Source: Gemmatimonadota bacterium (GTDB lineage Bacteria; Gemmatimonadota; Gemmatimonadetes; Palauibacterales; Palauibacteraceae). From it: 64,000 nt of DNA. The translations under genes and the position numbers were made by a program. The stretch lies in contig JBGMQU010000003.1 in the NCBI GenBank assembly GCA_048060725.1, forward strand, positions 527-64,526, given 5' to 3'. The notes under the pieces were generated by a model, which was not told the DNA's origin, ran no database searches, and saw only the letters and a list, made by a program, of their open reading frames with translations. The first letter of the stretch is position 1. Each line of letters begins with the position of its first letter. Positions 2,206 to 64,000 of this stretch are shown here, piece by piece.

Positions 2206-3339
2206 TTGAGACCGACGCCGGTCCTCCACGTCATCGATACCGGCGGTCCCGGCGGCGCCGAGACCGTCTACCTGGATCTCCTTTGCGGGCTCCACCGAGA
2301 TCGTTGGGAGCCGATTGCGGTCGTTCCCGAGCGCGATTGGCTCTGGGAGGCTCTCGAGAACAGAGGGATCGAGCCGGTGCTCCTCAGGGGAACGCGATCC
2401 TTCGATTTCGCCTACCTGTCGAGACTACGTTCTCTGGCACGTTCGCGCCGCGTGGCCCTGCTCCAGACACACCTGCTGGGCTCCGCGGTCTACGGCGCGG
2501 CGGTGGGGCGACTGCTTCGGATACCGCAGGTATCCACGTTCCACGGAACGGTCGATATTTCGGCGTCCGACCGCCACCTGCGGGCGAAGCTGTGGATCCT
2601 GGATCGTGCGTCGACGCGACTGGTCTTCGTATCGCAGTCGCTCCAGCGGCACTTTGAAACGATCTCGGGTCACGGCCCTGCGGCCGCCCGGGTGATCCAC
2701 AACGGCATCGATCTCGAGACGTTCCGGCCCGGGTCGGAGCCGGAGCTGAGGGCAGACTTCGGGGTGGGCCAGGAGGAGATCCTGCTCGGGGCGATCGGCA
2801 ACGTTCGACCTGCGAAGGACTACCCGACGCTGCTGCGGGCGCTCGCCGAACTGGCGAAACGCGGCATCCACCCCCGCTGTATAATCGTCGGCCAGCCTTC
2901 CGGGTCTCTGGGCGGTGATCTGCTCGCCCTTCGCGCGGCACTCGGGCTCGAAAAAACCGTCGAATTCATCGGTTTCAGATCCGACATCGACCGGGTACTG
3001 CAGGCGCTCGATGCTCTCGTGATCAGCTCATCCTCGGAGGGGTTCTCGCTCACGGCCGTCCAGGCCCTGGCGACCGGTACGCCGGTCGTATCGACGCGGT
3101 GCGGGGGGCCCGAGGAGATTCTGGAGCACGACGTCACGGGCGTGCTCGTACCGGCCGGGTCTCCCTCTGCGCTCGCCGACGGGATCGAGCGGATTTGCTC
3201 GGATCGGGCGCTTCGGGCCCGACTCTCATCCGGCGGGCGCAGGGTGGCGGAGTCGCGGTTCTCCCTCCACATGATGATCGAGGGATACGAACGTCTTTAC
3301 CACGAGTTGTCCGAGGGTCGAAGGGGGGCGCGCGCATGA
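2206..3339 (+). CDS. Glycosyltransferase family 4 (GT-B)
   Basis: The N-terminus VLHVIDTGGPGGAETV and the C-terminal SSSEGFSLTAVQALATGTPVVSTRCGGPEEIL (E-x7-E region) are typical of GT4 enzymes. Confidence 0.85.
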   Translation: MRPTPVLHVIDTGGPGGAETVYLDLLCGLHRDRWEPIAVVPERDWLWEALENRGIEPVLLRGTRSFDFAYLSRLRSLARSRRVALLQTHLLGSAVYGAAVGRLLRIPQVSTFHGTVDISASDRHLRAKLWILDRASTRLVFVSQSLQRHFETISGHGPAAARVIHNGIDLETFRPGSEPELRADFGVGQEEILLGAIGNVRPAKDYPTLLRALAELAKRGIHPRCIIVGQPSGSLGGDLLALRAALGLEKTVEFIGFRSDIDRVLQALDALVISSSSEGFSLTAVQALATGTPVVSTRCGGPEEILEHDVTGVLVPAGSPSALADGIERICSDRALRARLSSGGRRVAESRFSLHMMIEGYERLYHELSEGRRGARA

Positions 3340-4541
3340 GTCCGTCTGTGCTGATCACCTGCGGTGAGCAGCGCTCGGCGCTCTCGATCGTCAGGTCGCT
3401 GGGGCGCGCGGGCTTCCGAGTACGCGTGTGCTCGTCGCGGGCGCCTTCCCTCGCCGGGGCCTCACGGTTCGCAGATGAGGAGCACGTCGTTCCGGACCCC
3501 GTAATCCGACCCGAGGCGTTTGCCGTCGCCCTCACGGGACTGATCGAGAAGTTGCGGCCTGACCTCGTGATCCCGGTTACGGAGGCGGCCCTGTTGGCTT
3601 CGCTGAGTATCGAGACCGGCCGGTCCGGGACGAAATTCCCGTTCCCGGATCTCGAACGCTTCGCCGCGGTTTGTGACAAGACCCGCGTGTTCGAGGCCGC
3701 ACGCGCCGAGGGCATTTCCGTGCCGCGCGAGGTGGTGCTGAACCGTCGTTCGGACCTGGCCGGTGCCTTCGTCGACATCTCCTTCCCGGTGGTGATCAAA
3801 CCGGCGCGTTCCGTCTCGGGCAACTCGGTCGAACGCAGCAAGCATGTGGTACTCCACGCGACCGATTCCGCGGCCCTGTCGGCAGCAGTCGATCTGCTTC
3901 CAGATGAAGCGTTCCCGGTGCATGTTCAGCAGCGGATCGTCGGTCCGGGGATCGGCGTGTTTCTGTTGCGCTGGGAGGGTAGGACGCTCGCGGAGTTCGC
4001 TCACCGTCGGATTCGGGAGAAACCGCCCTCCGGTGGGGTCAGCGTGCTTTGCGAAAGCGTGGAGGTTGATCCCGATCTGCTGGACGCCTCGCTGCGTCTG
4101 CTCGCGCGGTTCGAATGGGAGGGGGTCGCGATGGTGGAGTACAAGCGTGACGCCGCCACGGGCCGGGCCTATTTGATGGAGATCAATGGCCGATTCTGGG
4201 GCTCGCTCGAGCTCGCCGTGAAGTCCGGCGTCGACTTTCCGCGGCAGCTGGCCGCCGCCGCGCTCGGGAACGCCGTCGAGCCCATTGGGCGATACCGCGT
4301 GGGCGTACGGAACCGGTGGGTATGGGGAGATGTCGACCACCTCATCATGAGGCTCCGCCGGTCTGCGGCTCAGTTGTCGTTGCCCCACGGAGCACCCGGA
4401 AGGGTGCGCGTCGTGATCGACTTCTTCCTCGCCTTCCTGTGGGCCCGGCCCGAGGTCTTCCAAATTTCCGATCCCGCTCCGGCATGGCGCGAGACCCGGG
4501 ACTGGTTTGCAGCGCTCGGCGGCTCCGGGAGGGGCCCATGA
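3336..4541 (+). CDS. ATP-grasp domain protein
   Basis: The track ORF 3099..4541 carries an R-rich N-terminal extension. The ATG at 3336 overlaps the upstream stop (ATGA). The sequence SPSVLITCGEQRSALSIVRSLGRAGFRVRV...FPVVIKPARS...GVAMVEYK...YLMEINGRFWGS has the pre-ATP-grasp plus ATP-grasp pattern. Confidence 0.75.
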   Translation: MSPSVLITCGEQRSALSIVRSLGRAGFRVRVCSSRAPSLAGASRFADEEHVVPDPVIRPEAFAVALTGLIEKLRPDLVIPVTEAALLASLSIETGRSGTKFPFPDLERFAAVCDKTRVFEAARAEGISVPREVVLNRRSDLAGAFVDISFPVVIKPARSVSGNSVERSKHVVLHATDSAALSAAVDLLPDEAFPVHVQQRIVGPGIGVFLLRWEGRTLAEFAHRRIREKPPSGGVSVLCESVEVDPDLLDASLRLLARFEWEGVAMVEYKRDAATGRAYLMEINGRFWGSLELAVKSGVDFPRQLAAAALGNAVEPIGRYRVGVRNRWVWGDVDHLIMRLRRSAAQLSLPHGAPGRVRVVIDFFLAFLWARPEVFQISDPAPAWRETRDWFAALGGSGRGP

Positions 4542-57553: not shown

Positions 57554-60500
57554 TCAGCTCGTGGCGCGGGCCGGCGTCCGGATGATCACGCCGGGCACCC
57601 CCTTTTCGCGCAACAGCTGGTTGAATTCCGCGACATCCGAATCGATGATCTGCTCGAGCGCATCGAGGTGTACGCCGAGGGCCGCCCGCAGGTCGTCCGC
57701 GCGCTCCGCGGCGCCGGCGTTCGGCCGATCGTACGTGGACCGGATGTAGCCGTAGAGCGCGGCGATCTGATTGTCGAGCATCGGCGGGAAGTTGAGCGGA
57801 TCCTGCCCGGACTCGTTCTTCGTCTGGAAGAGCTCTTCCTCGACGGCGGTCAGTTTCTCTCCCGTGTCTTCGGCCATCGTCTCGAACTCGTCACCGAAGC
57901 CGGCGTCCTTCGCCGTCTTCGCCACGTCCGTCATCTGATCGCGGATGGAGCGGATTTCGCGGACGGCGTCGTGCGACTCTTCCAGCATGGCCCGGACACG
58001 AACCATCAGATCGTGCTGAGCCTGCAGGTCCGCTGTCGAGACTTCGCCGGCCACGCGTGGATCGATTGCCACGTCGAGGGGCCGGGTCTGCGAGACGTCA
58101 CCCGTGGAAAGCCGGACCTCGTACTCGCCGGGAACCGCGGGAACCCGACCCGTGAAGCCCCAGATCTGCGCTCCGTCCACGATGTCGGGGCCCTCCTCCT
58201 GGAAGTTCCAGATCACTCGATTGAGGCCGGCCTCCGCGTCGAGGCGATCCGGGCTCCAATCGGGCGACCGGCCGATCGCCGCCTTCGCCTCGTCATCCCA
58301 GCTCTCCGGTTCGGTCGAGTAGACGCGTACCGTTCGTCCCGTGCGGTCGACGATCTCGAGGCTCAGAGGGTCGTCCGGATCCTCCGCCAGCTGGAAGTAG
58401 ATTGCCGCCCCGTTGGGGAAGACCCCCTGAGCGCGAACGGATGGCCCGGGCGTGTAGAGATGCAGCGGAGCGGAAGCGGTGGCGGCCGTCATCTGCCGAA
58501 CCGGTGTGATGTCGTCCAGGATCCAGAACGACCGGCCCTGCGTCGCCACCACGAGGTCGCCCCGGTGTATGCGCATGTCGGTGACGGGAGTGACGGGGAG
58601 ATCCAGCCGGAACGACTGCCACATCCCGCCGTCGTCGAAGCTGACGTACATGCCGTTCTCGGTGCCGGCGAACAGGAGCCCCTGTCGGACGGGATCTTCG
58701 CGGACGACCCGTACGAAGTGGCCGTCCTCGATACCGGCCGTACCCAGCCGGGTCCACGTTTCGCCGTAGTCGTCGGTCTGGAAGATGTAGGACCCGACGT
58801 CCTGCATCCGGTACCGGTAGGCGACGACGAGCGCCCGTCCGGCGCCGTGGGCCGACAGATCGATCATGTTCACGGTCGAGAACTCGGGGAGTCCGGGCGG
58901 CGTCACGTTTGCCCAGTTCGCGCCATCGTCACGAGAGACGTGGACGAGTCCGTCGTCCGAGCCGGCCCAAAGCACACCGCGCTCGTGGGGCGACTCCTCG
59001 AACGCGAAGATGGTCCCGTAGACCTCGACACCGGTGTTGTCCCAGGTGATTCGGCCGCCGGCCCAGTCCTGCTTGGTCGTGTCGTTTCTGGTCAGGTCGG
59101 GGCTGATGGTCTCCCAGGAGTATCCGCCGTCGGTCGTGCGGTTCACGAACTGAGACGTGTGGTAGACTACGTCCGGGTCGTGGGGTGAGATCCGGATCGG
59201 CGCGTTCCATTGGAAGCGGTGACGCAAGGTTCTGGGCGCCTGTCCGAGTTGCAGTTCCGGGTAGATGAGGATTTGCCGGACGTCCCCGGTGGCCCGGTTT
59301 ACGCGATTGATGTTCCCGCCGTAGCAGCCGGCGTACGTGACCATCGGGTCGCGCGGATCGATCGCGATGTGGCCGCTCTCGCACCCGCCGACCGCAGCCC
59401 AGTATTGGCTCGGCTGAACCGCGGGCATCCCGCGGCTCGGCACCATGATCGTCGAGTTGTCCTGCTGCGACCCGTACACACGATAAGGGAACTGGTCGTC
59501 CACGAAGACCCGGTAGATCTCAGCCGTCGTCTGGTTGTAGTAGGTCGACCACGACTCGGCCCCGGTCGTGGTTACCTGACCGCCCCCATCGTCCGCCACG
59601 ACCTGAAAGTCGGGGTCATCGTAGTTGATCCAGAGGTCATGGACGTCGCCGTGGGGCACTCCGTAGCTCTGCCAGGTCGTGCCGCCGTCGATCGACTTGA
59701 AGTATCCGGTGTTGAGCGCGTACACGGTGTTCTCGTCGACCGGGTCGGCGTAGATGTGCGTGTAGTACCACGCCCGTTGCTGGAGTTTGCGCTCGCGATT
59801 GACCCGCTTCCACGTGTCGCCGCCGTCGTCGGAGCGATACACGCCGCCCGCGTCATCCGGCGCCTCGATCAGCACCCACACCCGGTCGGGGTTCGCCCGC
59901 GACACGGTGACCGCCGCCTTGCCGACCAGCCCGGTGGGGAGTCCGCCCTCCAGCCGCTCCCAACTGTCGCCGGAGTCCGTCGAGCGGAAGATCCCGCTCT
60001 CCTCGGACCCCGAGATCGTGGTCCATGGCTTTCGTTCCGCCCGCCATGCCGCGGCGAAGATGACCCGAGGGTTCCCGGGGTTGATCGCGAGATCCACGAC
60101 CCCGGTCGAGTCCGAAATAAAGAGGACCCGATCCCAGGTGTCGCCGCCATCGAGCGTGCGGTATACGCCCCGTTCGGGGTTCGGCCCGAACGGATCGCCG
60201 AGCGCGGCCACGAAGGCGACGTCGGGGTCGTCCGGGTGGACCTCGATGCGGCCGATCTGGCCGGCGTTCGGGAGGCCGACGTGACTCCACGAGTCACCCC
60301 CGTCGGTGCTTCGATACACTCCGACGCCTTTCGACACGTTGCCCCGGATGCAGGCTGACCCCGTGCCGACGTAGATGACGTTCGCATCGCTGTCCGCGAC
60401 GTCGATGGCCCCGATCGACCCCGTGGAGAAAAAGTCATCCGAGACGTTGGTCCAGTTCAGGCCGGCGTCGCTCGTCTTCCAGACTCCGCCCCCGGTGGCC

Positions 60501-60709
60501 CCCATGAAGAACGTGAGCGGTTTTTCCGTGATGCCGGCCACGGCAGTGCTGCGCCCGCCGCGCGGTGGACCGATGGACCGATACGAAAGATCGCCGAATG
60601 CGGACTCATCGAACGCCGCTCCCTCCTGCGCGGTCGCCGCGCCAGGGGCCAGAACGCCGAAGGTCAGGACGGCGAGGAGCGCCGCTACGGGGGTGGGCGT
60701 GGTGCGCAT
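57554..60709 (-). CDS. BNR/Asp-box repeat, sortilin(VPS10)-like secreted protein
   Basis: The 1051-aa protein has a signal peptide and repeated S-x-D-x-G-x-T-W Asp-box motifs (TSDAGLNWT, STDGGDSWS, TLDGGDTWD, STDSGDSWE, SDDGGDTWK, SIDGGTTWQ, TTDGGYSWE, SRDDGANWA, TDDYGETWT). Confidence 0.85.
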   Translation of the reverse strand: MRTTPTPVAALLAVLTFGVLAPGAATAQEGAAFDESAFGDLSYRSIGPPRGGRSTAVAGITEKPLTFFMGATGGGVWKTSDAGLNWTNVSDDFFSTGSIGAIDVADSDANVIYVGTGSACIRGNVSKGVGVYRSTDGGDSWSHVGLPNAGQIGRIEVHPDDPDVAFVAALGDPFGPNPERGVYRTLDGGDTWDRVLFISDSTGVVDLAINPGNPRVIFAAAWRAERKPWTTISGSEESGIFRSTDSGDSWERLEGGLPTGLVGKAAVTVSRANPDRVWVLIEAPDDAGGVYRSDDGGDTWKRVNRERKLQQRAWYYTHIYADPVDENTVYALNTGYFKSIDGGTTWQSYGVPHGDVHDLWINYDDPDFQVVADDGGGQVTTTGAESWSTYYNQTTAEIYRVFVDDQFPYRVYGSQQDNSTIMVPSRGMPAVQPSQYWAAVGGCESGHIAIDPRDPMVTYAGCYGGNINRVNRATGDVRQILIYPELQLGQAPRTLRHRFQWNAPIRISPHDPDVVYHTSQFVNRTTDGGYSWETISPDLTRNDTTKQDWAGGRITWDNTGVEVYGTIFAFEESPHERGVLWAGSDDGLVHVSRDDGANWANVTPPGLPEFSTVNMIDLSAHGAGRALVVAYRYRMQDVGSYIFQTDDYGETWTRLGTAGIEDGHFVRVVREDPVRQGLLFAGTENGMYVSFDDGGMWQSFRLDLPVTPVTDMRIHRGDLVVATQGRSFWILDDITPVRQMTAATASAPLHLYTPGPSVRAQGVFPNGAAIYFQLAEDPDDPLSLEIVDRTGRTVRVYSTEPESWDDEAKAAIGRSPDWSPDRLDAEAGLNRVIWNFQEEGPDIVDGAQIWGFTGRVPAVPGEYEVRLSTGDVSQTRPLDVAIDPRVAGEVSTADLQAQHDLMVRVRAMLEESHDAVREIRSIRDQMTDVAKTAKDAGFGDEFETMAEDTGEKLTAVEEELFQTKNESGQDPLNFPPMLDNQIAALYGYIRSTYDRPNAGAAERADDLRAALGVHLDALEQIIDSDVAEFNQLLREKGVPGVIIRTPARATS

Positions 60710-60798: not shown

Positions 60799-61224
60799 TC
60801 AGGGCCGAGCCCTGGACAGAGAGTCGTACCACCTTGAGCGGATCTCCTCGATCAGGTCCTCGCGCTCCGTTCGGATTCGTCGCACAACGTCCGGGGGCGC
60901 CGCCGTTTCGGGGTCGTGGATCGCTCCCCACAGGATCATCTCGATCAGGATCGGGAGCGTATCGAGACCCTTCTCGGTCAGGCCGTACTCGTATCGCTTC
61001 CTATCGCCGGGGTCGCGGGTCCTGGTGAGCAACCCCGCGGCCTCCAGTCGTTCGAGCCGGTCGGCCAGGATGTTCGTGGAGATCCCTTCACCAGCGTCGA
61101 GGAACTCGCCGTAGTACCGCCGGCCCCCGAACAGGATGTCCCGGAGCACCAGCAGGCTCCAGCGATCGCCGAACAACTCCAGCGAAACGGAGACGGGACA
61201 CCCCGACCTTCTGCCTTTTCTCAT
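60799..61224 (-). CDS. HxlR family transcriptional regulator
   Basis: CPVSVSLELFGDRWSLLVLRDILFGGRRYYGEF...ISTNILADRLERLEAAGLL. It is divergent from the DinB-family gene. Confidence 0.85.
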   Translation of the reverse strand: MRKGRRSGCPVSVSLELFGDRWSLLVLRDILFGGRRYYGEFLDAGEGISTNILADRLERLEAAGLLTRTRDPGDRKRYEYGLTEKGLDTLPILIEMILWGAIHDPETAAPPDVVRRIRTEREDLIEEIRSRWYDSLSRARP

Positions 61225-61334: not shown

Positions 61335-61844
61335 ATGAACAGCCCGAAGATGGCCTCGATGCTTGCCGAGCTCGAGCAGGAGGAGGCCGCGACGCTCCGC
61401 ATGCTGGAGCGCGTCCCCGCGGACAAGCTGGAGTGGCGCCCCCACCCGAAGTCGATGACGCTCGGGCAGCTCGCTCTCCATACCGCCGGCACGATCGGCG
61501 ACATCAGCAACTTCCTCGAACTCGAGGGGTTCGACGTGAACGACGCGGACTTCGAAGCCGCCCAACCGGCGTCCATCGACGAAATCCTGGAGAAGTTCGA
61601 AACTGCGCAGGCGATGGCGCGCGAACGGTTCGCGGCCTTGAGCGACGACCAGGCGGCGGCGCCCTGGACTCTGTCGAAGGGCGACACCGAGATCTTCACG
61701 ATTCCGAAGGCCTGGCTCGCTCGATCGCTCATGATGAACCACCTGTACCACCATCGCGGTCAGCTGTCCGTATACCTCCGTCTTCTCGATGTGCCCGTGC
61801 CTGTCACGTACGGACGGAGCGCCGACGAAGACGCCTTTGCGTAG
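61335..61844 (+). CDS. DinB family protein
   Basis: The 169-aa protein reads LEQEEAATLRMLERVPADKLEWRPHPKSMTLGQLALH...MNHLYHHRGQLSVYLRLL, which fits the DinB four-helix pattern with His residues. Confidence 0.8.
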   Translation: MNSPKMASMLAELEQEEAATLRMLERVPADKLEWRPHPKSMTLGQLALHTAGTIGDISNFLELEGFDVNDADFEAAQPASIDEILEKFETAQAMARERFAALSDDQAAAPWTLSKGDTEIFTIPKAWLARSLMMNHLYHHRGQLSVYLRLLDVPVPVTYGRSADEDAFA

Positions 61845-61882: not shown

Positions 61883-62407
61883 CTACGAGGTGATCAGGTC
61901 GAGGATGTCATCGATGGCGCCCTCAGCAATCTGTTCCAGTTCGGCAGGGGAGCGGTTCTGGATCGGGTGCGGAACCCAGACGATCCCCGGCTCGAACCCG
62001 AGCGACCGCGACTGCTTGGCCGCCGCGTCCCGGAACTCCGTCGTCACGACGAAGCAGCCCGGTACGCCCCGGTCATCGAGCGCCTTCAGGTCGTGCAGAC
62101 CGCACGACGTGCAGGATCCTCAGTCGGCGAGTGCCTGGACGACGGCGTGCGCCTCCGTCGCGATCCGCTGGAGGATGTCGGGGGAGGCGGTCCGCGCGTT
62201 CGTGGGTTTCCTCGATCGGATCGTGTCGACGCCGCGCGCGGTCAACCGCATCTCGAGATAGTCGAGGAACTCCTCACTGCGCGCCTTCCCGATCCCCTGG
62301 AGGGCGACGACCTTGCCGACAAGGCTGGCCGGCGGGGCCCTTCGGGGCCGGACGACAGGTTCCGTCTCGGCCGTAGGGTCGCACAGCACATTGACCGCGT
62401 CGTTCAT
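61883..62407 (-). CDS. Selenoprotein with U-G-S-C redox motif (UGA-recoded; 174 aa, Sec at residue 96)
   Basis: The track ORF ends at TGA 62120-62122, but the same frame stays open for 78 more G/C3-rich codons to TAG 61883-61885. Hand translation gives MNDAVNVL...EAHAVVQALAD-U-GSCTSCGLHDLKALDDRGVPGCFVVTTEFRDAAAKQSRSLGFEPGIVWVPHPIQNRSPAELEQIAEGAIDDILDLITS. A SECIS-like hairpin lies 11 nt downstream of the UGA. The ATG at 62407 overlaps the stop of the upstream gene (ATGA). I recall a curated family named 'UGSC family (seleno)protein', and this should be verified. Confidence 0.8.
62090..62108 (-). promoter_or_regulatory. Bacterial SECIS element (apical stem-loop)
   Basis: The minus-strand RNA reads UGA-GGAUCCUGCAC-GUCGUGC-GGUCU-GCACGAC, a perfect 7-bp stem with a GGUCU loop. 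Numbering the U of UGA as +1, the loop spans +22 to +26, with G at +23 and U at +24. This is the same geometry and GGUC loop as the E. coli fdhF SECIS, as I recall it. Confidence 0.75.
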
Positions 62408-63855
62408 GTCCGGATCTCCCTCGTTACCGGATGCGAATGCTCGTGAGCCCGCCCGCCCGGCCAGCCGGGCAGGATCGCCGAGAACAGCCCTGCAGGCCCG
62501 CCCGCCCGGGCGATCAGCAGGCCGTCTGGGGGGAACTTCGGGATCATGTCGTCCGCCCGCGAGGCCGGCATGCCCTCCCCGACGCCGCCCGCGCCCTCGA
62601 TGAGATCCCGGCCCGGCCGGGTGGTCGCGTCGGTCAGCGCACGGGTGATCCGGGTCCGATCCCAGCCGGCGTCCCGGAAGATCGCGTAGTGCTCCGGCGA
62701 GAGCAGGAGCAGCGTGAACGCCCATTCGCAGAGCTTCGGGTGGCCGACCGACACGAGGCTCATCGCGAGAGACCGCACCAGTTCTTCGGGGGTGCGGGAC
62801 TGCTGGTCCACGAACCCCTGCACGCCCTCTCCCTGGAACAGCGTGACCGCGTTACGGCCCGGGGCGACGCCGCGCGACGTGGCGAGCGGCTCCCACTCCG
62901 GGTCGGACTCGTCTTCGGCGAAACACTGCGTGAACTTGCTCGCCGAGCCGAACGTCGCCCGGTCGATGCCGCCCGGCCTCCCGCCGCCGACGTTCTGGAC
63001 GATGAGGTTCAGCGCGCGACCGATTGTGGCGTTCGCCCGATTCCCCTGGCCGAGGACGTTGATTCCGGAGTTCATGCCGAGTCGACGGGCCATGGGGCCG
63101 TTCACGATGATGACCGGGGTGCTGAAGCAGGTGCTGCACAGAATCGCGTGGAGCGTGAAGCCCGGTTCCAGCGCCGCCTCCACGATTCCCAGGAGGAGCG
63201 GCATGTACTCCGGCCTGCAGCCGGCCATCACCGCGTTGATCGCCACCTTTTCGACGGTGCACTCCACGAGATCGGGCGGGATCTTCCCCACCATCTCCTC
63301 TGCCGGACGGGGCGTGCCCCCGAGCATCCGCACGATTCGCTCCGGCGTGGGGGGGACCACCGGGAGCCCATCCGTCCACCCCCGGTCGAAACAGGTTTCC
63401 ATCGGGTCGGTGAACTCCGGGACGTGAATGAGGCGGGAGCTGAGGCCGGTGTCCCCGTAGCGGACCAGAAGGGTCTCCGGAACTCCCGGCTCCACGGATT
63501 TTGAACCGCACCCAGGCCGATGCTTCGGGAGTCCCTCGCCGAGACCGTCGATCTCCGTCAGCCGCTCCCAATCGGCGCGGTTCCACCCGACGACCCGATC
63601 GATTTCGTCTCCGTCCACGAACCGAATCAGCGTCGGGACGGTCTCGATTCGCAGGCGAAAGGAGTGCTCGAGCGATCGGTCATCGATTACCCCGTCGACG
63701 TCCGGGGGGAATCCCGGATCGTCCTGGCTGTACACGACGATCTCGGCGTCGGCGGTGCTCAGCCGGTGAAGGACCGGCCCGACGAGCCGGCAGGCGGGGC
63801 AGTCCTCCTTCACCACCGCGACGAGCCCGGTTCGCAGAGGGTCGGAACCCCTCAC
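62404..63855 (-). CDS. Thioredoxin-fold (CPAC) domain fused to a ~380-aa domain of unknown function
   Basis: The GTG at 63855 lies 5 nt after the upstream stop; the track start at 63972 would overlap the upstream gene. The N-terminus LVAVVKEDCPACRLVGPVLHRL...VPTLIRFVDGDE is thioredoxin-like with a CxxC motif. The large C-terminal domain is Cys-containing and I cannot name it (CFDRGWTDGLPVVPPT..., AILCSTCFSTPVIIVNGP...). Confidence 0.7.
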   Translation of the reverse strand: MRGSDPLRTGLVAVVKEDCPACRLVGPVLHRLSTADAEIVVYSQDDPGFPPDVDGVIDDRSLEHSFRLRIETVPTLIRFVDGDEIDRVVGWNRADWERLTEIDGLGEGLPKHRPGCGSKSVEPGVPETLLVRYGDTGLSSRLIHVPEFTDPMETCFDRGWTDGLPVVPPTPERIVRMLGGTPRPAEEMVGKIPPDLVECTVEKVAINAVMAGCRPEYMPLLLGIVEAALEPGFTLHAILCSTCFSTPVIIVNGPMARRLGMNSGINVLGQGNRANATIGRALNLIVQNVGGGRPGGIDRATFGSASKFTQCFAEDESDPEWEPLATSRGVAPGRNAVTLFQGEGVQGFVDQQSRTPEELVRSLAMSLVSVGHPKLCEWAFTLLLLSPEHYAIFRDAGWDRTRITRALTDATTRPGRDLIEGAGGVGEGMPASRADDMIPKFPPDGLLIARAGGPAGLFSAILPGWPGGRAHEHSHPVTREIRT

Positions 63856-63859
63856 CTGC

Positions 63860-64000
63860 CTACCCGCTCCCCGGAGCCGCCTCGAGACGGTAGGCGACGA
63901 CCCAGGTGACGTCGAACTCCCCCACCTCGAAGGCCCACACGCGGTCGCCGGAAGCGGCAACGAGCTTCGCATGGTCCGGGGCCCGGAGCTCGCCGAGGTA
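63860..64000 (-). CDS. Hypothetical protein (partial; 5' end beyond the right window edge)
   Basis: Hand translation of the open minus-strand frame gives ...YLGELRAPDHAKLVAASGDRVWAFEVGEFDVTWVVAYRLEAAPGSG, ending at TAG 63860-63862. Codons are G/C3-rich. I do not recognise a family. Confidence 0.4.
   Translation of the reverse strand, partial: YLGELRAPDHAKLVAASGDRVWAFEVGEFDVTWVVAYRLEAAPGSG

Follow-up and report, generated by a model that had tools for sequence, protein, structure and literature searches.

A UGSC-family selenoprotein and its conserved gene partner: a candidate two-subunit, thioredoxin-dependent reductase

Here we describe a pair of minus-strand genes in a 64,000-nucleotide stretch of DNA from a Gemmatimonadota bacterium (GenBank assembly GCA_048060725.1, contig JBGMQU010000003.1, positions 527 to 64,526), which as a whole is called the window and whose G+C content is 66%. 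The first gene encodes a protein of 483 amino acids (aa) in which an N-terminal thioredoxin (Trx) fold is joined by a short linker to a large domain that we call X, and the second encodes a selenoprotein of the UGSC family, with selenocysteine (Sec) read from an in-frame UGA. The pairing recurs across phyla, both as neighbouring genes and as gene fusions, and the window holds an ordinary example of this pair, which is very numerous, well conserved and functionally undescribed. On balance, and with modest conviction, we think it probable that the products of the two genes are the subunits of a thioredoxin-dependent reductase of the cytoplasm, which may act on a small organic acid or acid derivative. 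The features of the pair are as follows.

62404 to 63855, minus strand: gene of the 483-aa Trx-X fusion protein, GTG start at 63855 and TGA stop at 62406-62404 (open reading frame and its translation)
63541 to 63834, minus strand: thioredoxin-fold domain, residues about 8-105, with the cis-Pro-like V73-P74-T75 (Foldseek and weak sequence matches)
63790 to 63801, minus strand: CPAC redox motif, residues 19-22, with Cys19 and Cys22 (read from the sequence)
63502 to 63516, minus strand: linker motif P-G-C-G-S with Cys116, a proposed relay cysteine (invariant in homologues)
62407 to 63453, minus strand: domain X, residues about 135-483 (about 350 aa), probably catalytic (homologue clusters and AlphaFold2 model)
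63217 to 63219, minus strand: codon of Cys213, within A-G-C (column C89, invariant in the 48-sequence alignment A2)
62404 to 62407, minus strand: ATGA, the stop/start overlap of the two genes (read from the sequence)
61883 to 62407, minus strand: gene of the 174-aa UGSC-family selenoprotein, ATG at 62407-62405 and TAG at 61885-61883 (PF24696, NF041046)
62102 to 62122, minus strand: motif U-G-S-C-T-S-C, Sec codon TGA at 62122-62120 (read from the sequence)
62083 to 62115, minus strand: hairpin of the Sec insertion sequence (SECIS), core stem 62108-62090, loop GGUCU (predicted fold and covariation)

Results

The selenoprotein and its decoding signal

The 174-aa protein matches the UGSC family model PF24696 at 107.2 bits (gathering threshold 25; E 1.3e-30; 166 of 174 residues covered) and scores 111.8 bits against NF041046, under the equivalog cut-off of 125 for that model; with UGSC proteins from other such pairs the E value falls to 1.6e-48. 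Searches of the PDB with UGSC, by sequence or profile, gave no match. The reading frame contains one in-frame TGA, read as Sec96 within D-U-G-S-C-T-S-C, and the pattern D95-U/C96-G-S-C99-T-x-C102 is invariant in UGSC homologues. The codon for residue 96 is TGA in 73 related loci and TGC in eight.

The putative decoding signal begins 14 nucleotides (nt) past the first base of the UGA and has the stem GUCGUGC/GCACGAC. Its free energy is ordinary for this G+C content (z = -0.43), and a comparative test was therefore run. Of the 73 distinct Sec-type homologues compared, about 100% form the six core pairs; the pair at the wobble positions Ser3/His3 is GC in 38, GU in 27 and AU in 8, with zero mismatches (permutation p ~0.002), the closing pair is CG in 70 and UA in 3, and the loop is invariably N-G-U-N-N. 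Seven distinct Cys-type (TGC) genes were available for comparison, of which six have the closing pair broken, and the GU of the loop is lost. Because the pairs covary in Sec-type genes and break in Cys-type genes, the hairpin is, judged by comparison, a real bacterial SECIS. No SECIS family was matched meaningfully in a search of Rfam. The residues that follow the motif read S-C-[S/G/C]-[L/V/M]-H in the Sec-type proteins versus S-C-S-T-H in the Cys-type (window 62090-62122 and the homologous sites of loci L001-L083), and since the Leu, Val or Met codon gives the stem-closing G and the loop U, the SECIS RNA constrains the protein sequence.

Around the Sec, the family also resembles selenoprotein B of the amino-acid reductases. 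When 20 UGSC sequences were compared with curated models, 18 matched the GrdB model TIGR01917 (best E 3e-5), 16 the GrdF model (best E 1.7e-5), and eight each the generic selenoprotein B model TIGR01918 and the GrdH model. The GrdB-type matches are local and surround the Sec, running over residues 69-123 of the UGSC protein in the window against model positions 323-377, and overall within model positions of about 323-398, and from these model coordinates the Sec of UGSC would align with the Sec of selenoprotein B. As far as the alignments go, UGSC and the part of GrdB around its Sec are remotely related.

The thioredoxin-fold domain and domain X

The start of the 483-aa protein was placed at the GTG at 63855, and a longer open reading frame (ORF) from the ATG at 63972 was rejected since homologues give it no support. 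More than 8000 full-length homologues were found at 62-89% identity. The closest relatives are Gemmatimonadota, at 89% identity for a protein of GCA_039656375.1 (locus L001), and include Candidatus Palauibacter and Longimicrobiales. The full-length AlphaFold2 (AF2) model is of moderate confidence, with a predicted local distance difference test score (pLDDT) of 76.6.

Foldseek comparison of the predicted structure matched many thioredoxins to the N-terminal domain at probability 1.00, with template modelling (TM) scores on the target of 0.5-0.7. The domain is weak by sequence: PF13098 (Thioredoxin_2) is matched at E 0.059 and 14.2 bits against a cut-off of 27, TIGR01068 at E 8.9e-4 and 19.4 bits against a cut-off of 96.8, and the weak Pfam, TIGR and PDB sequence matches to thioredoxin span residues 12-93. 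Because the curated cut-offs are not reached, we class it from its sequence as a divergent Trx-like domain and not a canonical thioredoxin. All 41 homologues compared keep C19, C22, V73, P74 and T75, with CPTC and CETC as variants of CPAC, and Pro74 would correspond to the cis-Pro of thioredoxin. Residues G115, C116, G117 and S118 of the linker are invariant in the same homologues. The presence of PGCGS tracks the N-terminal Trx-fold domain; the motif also comes after the Redoxin domain in two other fusions of X and is missing from stand-alone X. Cys116 was considered as a pyruvoyl-forming cleavage site of the PrdA/GrdE kind, a proposal that we set aside since stand-alone X and UGSC-X proteins are without the motif.

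Domain X carries the motifs W-x-D-G-L-P-V-x-P-P-T, A-V-M-A-G-C and G-Q-G-N-R-A-N-A-T-I-G-R, and its superfamily comprises 5379 clusters at 50% identity (E<=1e-3). In the 48-sequence alignment only ten columns are invariant across this superfamily, among them the Asp of W-x-D-G-L-P, Cys213, an Asn and an Arg; in the numbering of the window protein the invariant residues include Asp162, Cys213, Asn275 and Arg280, and Arg273, Glu314 and His389 are near-invariant. Cys213, found in bacterial and archaeal X, is the sole cysteine invariant across the whole superfamily. This polar set looks like an active site. Neither single sequences nor the 48-sequence profile gave a match in Pfam, in NCBIfam or among PDB sequences. 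The AF2 model of X alone, built with a diverse alignment, has a pLDDT of 92.8 and a predicted TM score of 0.91, and its comparison with the PDB by Foldseek returned nothing better than E 4e-3 at a TM score of about 0.2. The folds of cyclic amide hydrolase (the Toblerone fold), class I fumarase and the selenophosphate synthetase SelD appeared at E >=4e-3 and TM scores of 0.13-0.25 and were not taken as homology. X is a large superfamily that has neither a Pfam model nor a solved structure.

The initial annotation, made from the letters of the window, had described an N-terminal thioredoxin-like domain with a CPAC site fused to a large Cys-containing domain that could be assigned to no family. 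The fold comparison and the invariance of Cys19 and Cys22 bear out the first part of that description; the second holds as well, and no family or solved structure marks the large domain as a well-known enzyme.

Pairing across genomes

To sample the pairing from the side of the fusion gene, one genome was taken per species; at least 597 species have Trx-X, and the best 80 loci, drawn from about ten phyla, were analysed; their lineages include Gemmatimonadota, Alpha-, Beta- and Gammaproteobacteria, Acidobacteriota, Chloroflexota, Nitrospirales, Hydrogenedentota, Acidimicrobiales and Eremiobacterota. UGSC is encoded at 79 of the 80 and lies directly 3' on the same strand in 78. At locus L044 the UGSC gene is 4.9 kb from Trx-X, and a metagenome-assembled genome of the Gammaproteobacteria (L061, OZ241870.1) is the sole locus without UGSC inside 6 kb on either side. 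The commonest junction is the 4-nt overlap, which is found in 26 loci. For the reverse test 80 metagenome loci were picked by UGSC alone, and among the 68 that were informative, with enough upstream sequence, Trx-X stands upstream of UGSC in 65. Two of the three exceptions have an IS3-family transposase at the place of Trx-X (L118:2-478 and L156:419-1186), probably by insertion or an assembly break. Finally, the neighbouring ORFs were clustered all against all, and the conserved unit consists of two genes, because no third neighbour is common to more than 10 of 82 loci.

The initial annotation had placed three genes together and had left conservation of the neighbourhood across phyla as the check to be made. 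Its coordinates are all correct (the upstream ORF ending at 63860, the 483-aa gene and the ATGA overlap at 62404-62407), and the association of UGSC with the Trx-fusion gene is conserved in both directions and as gene fusions. Of the three genes, Trx-X and UGSC do belong together, but the partial gene upstream of them falls outside the module. That ORF is not conserved 5' of Trx-X in relatives, not even in the 89%-identical L001, and for this reason a module of three genes was rejected.

Gene fusions

Domain X is found alone (about 350 aa), duplicated (about 715 aa), or fused to Trx, Redoxin, FTR-B or UGSC. In two representatives (P0131 and P0139) X is fused to an AhpC/TSA-Redoxin domain of the CxxC type with the PGCGS linker between them, and in another (P0149) to the catalytic domain of ferredoxin:thioredoxin reductase (FTR-B), with a UGSC selenoprotein gene directly 5'. 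Fusions of X with UGSC itself occur in both orders; among the 150 best representative clusters, hmmsearch finds a UGSC part in at least 20, and more can be recognised by eye. Of the database entries of 415-450 aa, many open with the half of UGSC that follows the Sec or close with the half that precedes it. Examples of the former at their N-termini are P0203, P0221, P0226, P0250, P0257, P0193 and P0222, and of the latter at their C-termini P0144, P0248, P0261 and P0263. These X entries are fusion selenoproteins that gene callers have cut at the UGA, a systematic annotation error that touches at least 20 of those 150 clusters.

The same fusions allow a different reading, in which the pair would serve general antioxidant defence or thiol repair, as a peroxidase, disulfide reductase or sulfoxide-reductase-like enzyme, and not as a reductase of catabolism. 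Fusions of X to Trx-fold and AhpC/TSA/Redoxin domains would suit such a role, as would the classing of UxxC proteins with redox proteins in selenoproteome surveys (PMC2398784) and the lack of constant metabolic neighbours around the fused form. However, the Redoxin domains have CxxC and not a peroxidatic motif, X is large and its conserved Asp, Asn, Arg, His and Glu are of the sort typically seen where a small molecule binds, and the unfused operons accompany transporters, CoA transferases, lyases and substrate-type regulators. We consider an antioxidant role distinctly improbable.

Unfused operons and their genomic context

Where X is not fused to Trx, its operons often carry the thioredoxin system as separate genes. 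Arthrobacter sp. ERGS1:01 has the order trxB-trxA-X-UGSC with a thioredoxin of the canonical WCGPC type, and Roseovarius sp. THAF8 a LysR gene, X-UGSC-trxB, a CaiB-type coenzyme A (CoA) transferase and a tripartite ATP-independent periplasmic (TRAP) transporter. Variovorax sp. SRS16 has trxB, TctC, a short-chain dehydrogenase/reductase gene and X, followed by a CGSC protein; V. boronicumulans has a gene like thioredoxin reductase (TrxR), TctC and a UGSC-X fusion; and a metagenomic locus with stand-alone X has IclR, X, a Sec-containing UGSC, a CoA transferase and a flavoprotein of the size of TrxR. Of 81 fused loci, 2 have a TrxR gene close by, versus 5 of about 11 unfused contexts inspected; such complementarity is what one would expect if electrons enter through the fused Trx domain.

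On haloarchaeal plasmids the arrangement is X-UGSC-X or UGSC-X, beside CoA transferase, CoA ester lyase and RraA genes and genes of TRAP transporters. In two of them (L092:5366-8065 and L101:3319-5981) a single UGSC gene lies between two X paralogues, as X1-UGSC-X2, and the module therefore reaches into Archaea. The catabolic neighbours seen across these contexts include family-III CoA transferases, CoA ester lyase, TRAP and tripartite tricarboxylate transporters, and regulators of the LysR, IclR and GntR kinds, and they point to a substrate that is a small organic acid or a derivative of one, possibly a CoA thioester. Annotations of phosphosulfolactate synthase near X-UGSC in Arthrobacter and Natrinema (L096:3686-4474 and L098:2853-3320) may be a sign of sulfonate metabolism or a matter of chance.

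A Sec-type UGSC gene overlaps X in Paracoccus, with selB 3 kb off. Genes for DsrE, TusA and a cysteine desulfurase are also close by, and together with the faint fold matches of X to selenophosphate synthetase and the capacity of Cys-rich motifs to bind soft metals they would fit a module for trafficking or detoxification of selenium, sulfur or metalloids, in which UxxCxxC serves as a binding site. Such neighbours were met in just one of about 100 loci examined, however, the SelD matches have TM scores of 0.13-0.17, and no ars or mer genes recur in the loci examined, so that this role seems very improbable indeed.

Other features of the window

The remaining features near the pair are the following.

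63860 to 64000, minus strand: 3' end of the upstream partial ORF, TAG at 63862-63860 (adjacent only)
61335-61844, plus strand: DinB-family ORF, on the far side of the UGSC gene from Trx-X (precomputed Pfam label)
60799-61224, minus strand: small ORF downstream of the pair
57554-60709, minus strand: BNR/Sortilin-Vps10 protein of 1051 aa (precomputed Pfam label)

The upstream partial ORF has no Pfam or NCBIfam family match. At its place 5' of Trx-X, the relative L001 has a protein of about 435 aa without a Pfam match (3053-4507), and at L001:3118-3165 a remnant of 16 aa survives that shares 81% identity with the end of the ORF in the window. The 435-aa protein has a twin-arginine/lipobox-like N-terminus and a stretch S-G-G-K-G-L-R-G-P-Q-S-S-G, which may resemble pyridoxal phosphate enzymes of the SelA/DgaE type. 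The order of the DinB and Sortilin genes is kept in L001. The small ORF we take, by its look only and with no family-library search made, to be a regulator of the HxlR type. As for the machinery of Sec insertion, no tRNA genes and no SelB homologue were found within the 64 kb, a stretch too short to judge by.

Discussion

A proposed mechanism

The gene pairing, the fusions, the conserved motifs, the Sec decoding signal, the homology that UGSC shows to GrdB around the Sec, and the recruitment of thioredoxin and TrxR can all be read from the loci themselves. From them we infer a physical complex in which domain X would be the substrate-binding catalytic subunit, with Asp162, Cys213, Asn275 and Arg280, and also Arg273, Glu314 and His389, at its active site. 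UGSC would give the selenol/thiol centre, Sec96-x-x-Cys99-x-x-Cys102, akin to that of selenoprotein B in the reductases of glycine, sarcosine, betaine and D-proline. During the reaction, the selenolate would attack a substrate bound in X near Cys213, Cys99 would resolve the adduct to form a Se-S bond (U96-C99), and the reduced product would be released. The fused Trx domain, through Cys19 and Cys22, might then re-reduce the Se-S bond by way of Cys102 and/or the linker Cys116, and would itself be reduced by NADPH-thioredoxin reductase. By analogy with Grd/Prd chemistry we favour, with modest confidence, a reductive cleavage of a carbon-heteroatom bond beside an activated carboxyl group. The initial annotation had suggested a dedicated thiol/selenol relay between the two proteins; trxB and trxA in the unfused operons, the Redoxin and FTR-B domains on X and the kinship of UGSC with selenoprotein B support such a relay, through which electrons would pass as set out here.

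Several points weigh against this reading. The neighbourhoods of the fused Trx-X form are heterogeneous, and the UGSC protein of the window falls far under the cut-offs for selenoprotein B (13.8 bits vs 602 for TIGR01917 and 15.1 vs 800 for GrdF). Searches with 48 diverse X sequences at E up to 5 gave no Pfam or NCBIfam match to GrdE/PrdA, and X proteins have no pyruvoyl-forming site in common. A 561-aa UGSC-X fusion on plasmid pVEu of Vibrio europaeus (L094:6401-8086) has the motif A-D-M-G-T-S, with neither Sec nor Cys, and is a redox-dead variant. And a distant stand-alone X (P0191, at L090:7001-8047), 36% identical, has no UGSC nearby. The Vibrio fusion adjoins genes for aconitase X, DUF126, enolase, AzlCD and a Rid-family protein; P0191 has Amidohydro_2, Amidohydro_3 and isochorismatase genes as neighbours, with transposases flanking, and may be a non-redox branch of the X superfamily. 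Because of these two cases, some branches of X may carry out chemistry other than redox.

The same two cases also speak for another reading, that X is a non-redox enzyme, be it a hydrolase, an isomerase or a lyase, with UGSC in a structural or regulatory part and the Trx domain as a regulatory disulfide switch. A-D-M-G-T-S stands where A-D-U-G-S-C is expected, the distant X sits in an amidohydrolase and isochorismatase cluster with no UGSC, and the only fold hints, all very weak, point towards class I fumarase and the cyclic amide hydrolases. Sec, though, is costly and nearly always catalytic, and it is kept, with its SECIS maintained, in 73 of 81 genes. UxxCxxC fits the Sec site of a catalytic selenoprotein family, and trxB and trxA within the operons suggest a stoichiometric supply of electrons over regulation. 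A non-redox X appears unlikely to us, and we retain the thioredoxin-dependent reductase.

In its fullest form that reading would make X and UGSC an unrecognised class of thioredoxin-driven selenoenzyme, with a selenol centre of the GrdB/PrdB type, a catalytic subunit of new fold and no pyruvoyl group, carrying out the reductive cleavage of an organic acid or acyl-CoA and widespread in aerobic bacteria and haloarchaea. This fuller statement is a serious possibility, somewhat short of probable, and there is a real chance that the pair is a new enzyme class.

Literature and significance

UGSC has been listed as a protein of unknown function in selenoproteome papers (PMC1976440, PMC2398784, PMC9312934, PMC13188914). 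Its members rank among the most abundant selenoproteins of ocean and freshwater metagenomes; in the Global Ocean Sampling (GOS) data it was among the five most abundant selenoprotein families, with 255 sequences (PMC2398784), and a 2026 review still counts it among selenoproteins whose functions are largely uncharacterised (PMC13188914). The partner gene is annotated in genomes as a 'thioredoxin family protein' or a 'hypothetical protein', and full-text literature searches found no paper on a UGSC partner, a thioredoxin link or a relation to GrdB. The proposal of the initial annotation that this is a candidate for an undescribed system stands for the partner, the thioredoxin link and the GrdB relation, but UGSC itself is a catalogued family, and its fusion to a domain named 'Unknown_1' was noted in 2008 (PMC2398784); apart from that remark, the system appears to be undescribed. 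An obligate partner, a supply from Trx and TrxR and a kinship with selenoprotein B turn an orphan into a testable two-subunit enzyme, for which cultured hosts exist in Reyranella aquatilis, Marinobacter lacisalsi, Elioraea rosea, Arthrobacter sp. ERGS1:01 and Roseovarius sp. THAF8. If the fuller reading is true, the new selenoenzyme class would explain one of the most abundant aquatic selenoprotein families, an orphan since about 2005-2008.

Comparison with known systems

The protein in the window has the length of the catalogued UGSC family, its U-G-S-C motif, the in-frame UGA and the SECIS. In the literature UGSC is a stand-alone protein of unknown function, treated as having a presumed Trx-like fold (PMC1976440, PMC13188914), whereas here it is half of an obligate pair or fusion with X and kin of selenoprotein B. 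The 2008 study of the GOS selenoproteome figured the UGSC/'Unknown_1' fusion with a conserved Cys-containing domain in aquatic organisms (PMC2398784, Fig. S1A). 'Unknown_1' is probably domain X; the gene pairing, the thioredoxin links and the GrdB relation are not in that paper.

A parallel can be drawn with the glycine, sarcosine, betaine and D-proline reductases of Stickland fermenters. GrdB proteins bear a UxxCxxC motif, and grd operons draw electrons from the thioredoxin system and encode the catalytic partner subunit next door. By gene content, and by inference for the arrangement itself, our pair would likewise bring thioredoxin together with a small subunit that carries the Sec and a larger one for the substrate. 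In the case of D-proline reductase, the partner PrdA holds the substrate, which is attacked by the Sec of PrdB (PMC11229817), and GrdB-like proteins have been implicated in the reductive defluorination of fluoroacetate (PMC10838667). Unlike GrdB, at about 435 aa, the UGSC protein has 174 aa, and unlike the Stickland fermenters its hosts are aerobic Gemmatimonadota, Proteobacteria, Actinomycetota and haloarchaea. X was considered as a homologue of GrdE/PrdA or of the N-terminal part of GrdB and rejected as either, since the 48 X sequences gave no such family match in Pfam or NCBIfam, and GrdA, GrdC, GrdD and GrdE/PrdA genes do not recur among the neighbours of Trx-X loci. Because X has neither detectable similarity to GrdE/PrdA nor a conserved pyruvoyl site, the Stickland analogy is limited to the selenoprotein subunit; the pair does not belong to the Grd/Prd family, and its likeness to it is to be read as one of analogy.

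A further comparison is with thioredoxin-fused reductases, of which the Trx-MsrA/B fusions such as PilB are examples. As in those proteins, an N-terminal Trx fold with a CxxC motif and a cis-Pro loop is carried on an enzyme that it would be expected to reduce, and the unfused relatives of X use a separate TrxA and TrxB, as is the case for Trx-fused reductases. The domain differs from canonical thioredoxins in having CPAC, CPTC or CETC in place of WCGPC, and in the extra invariant cysteine of the PGCGS linker.

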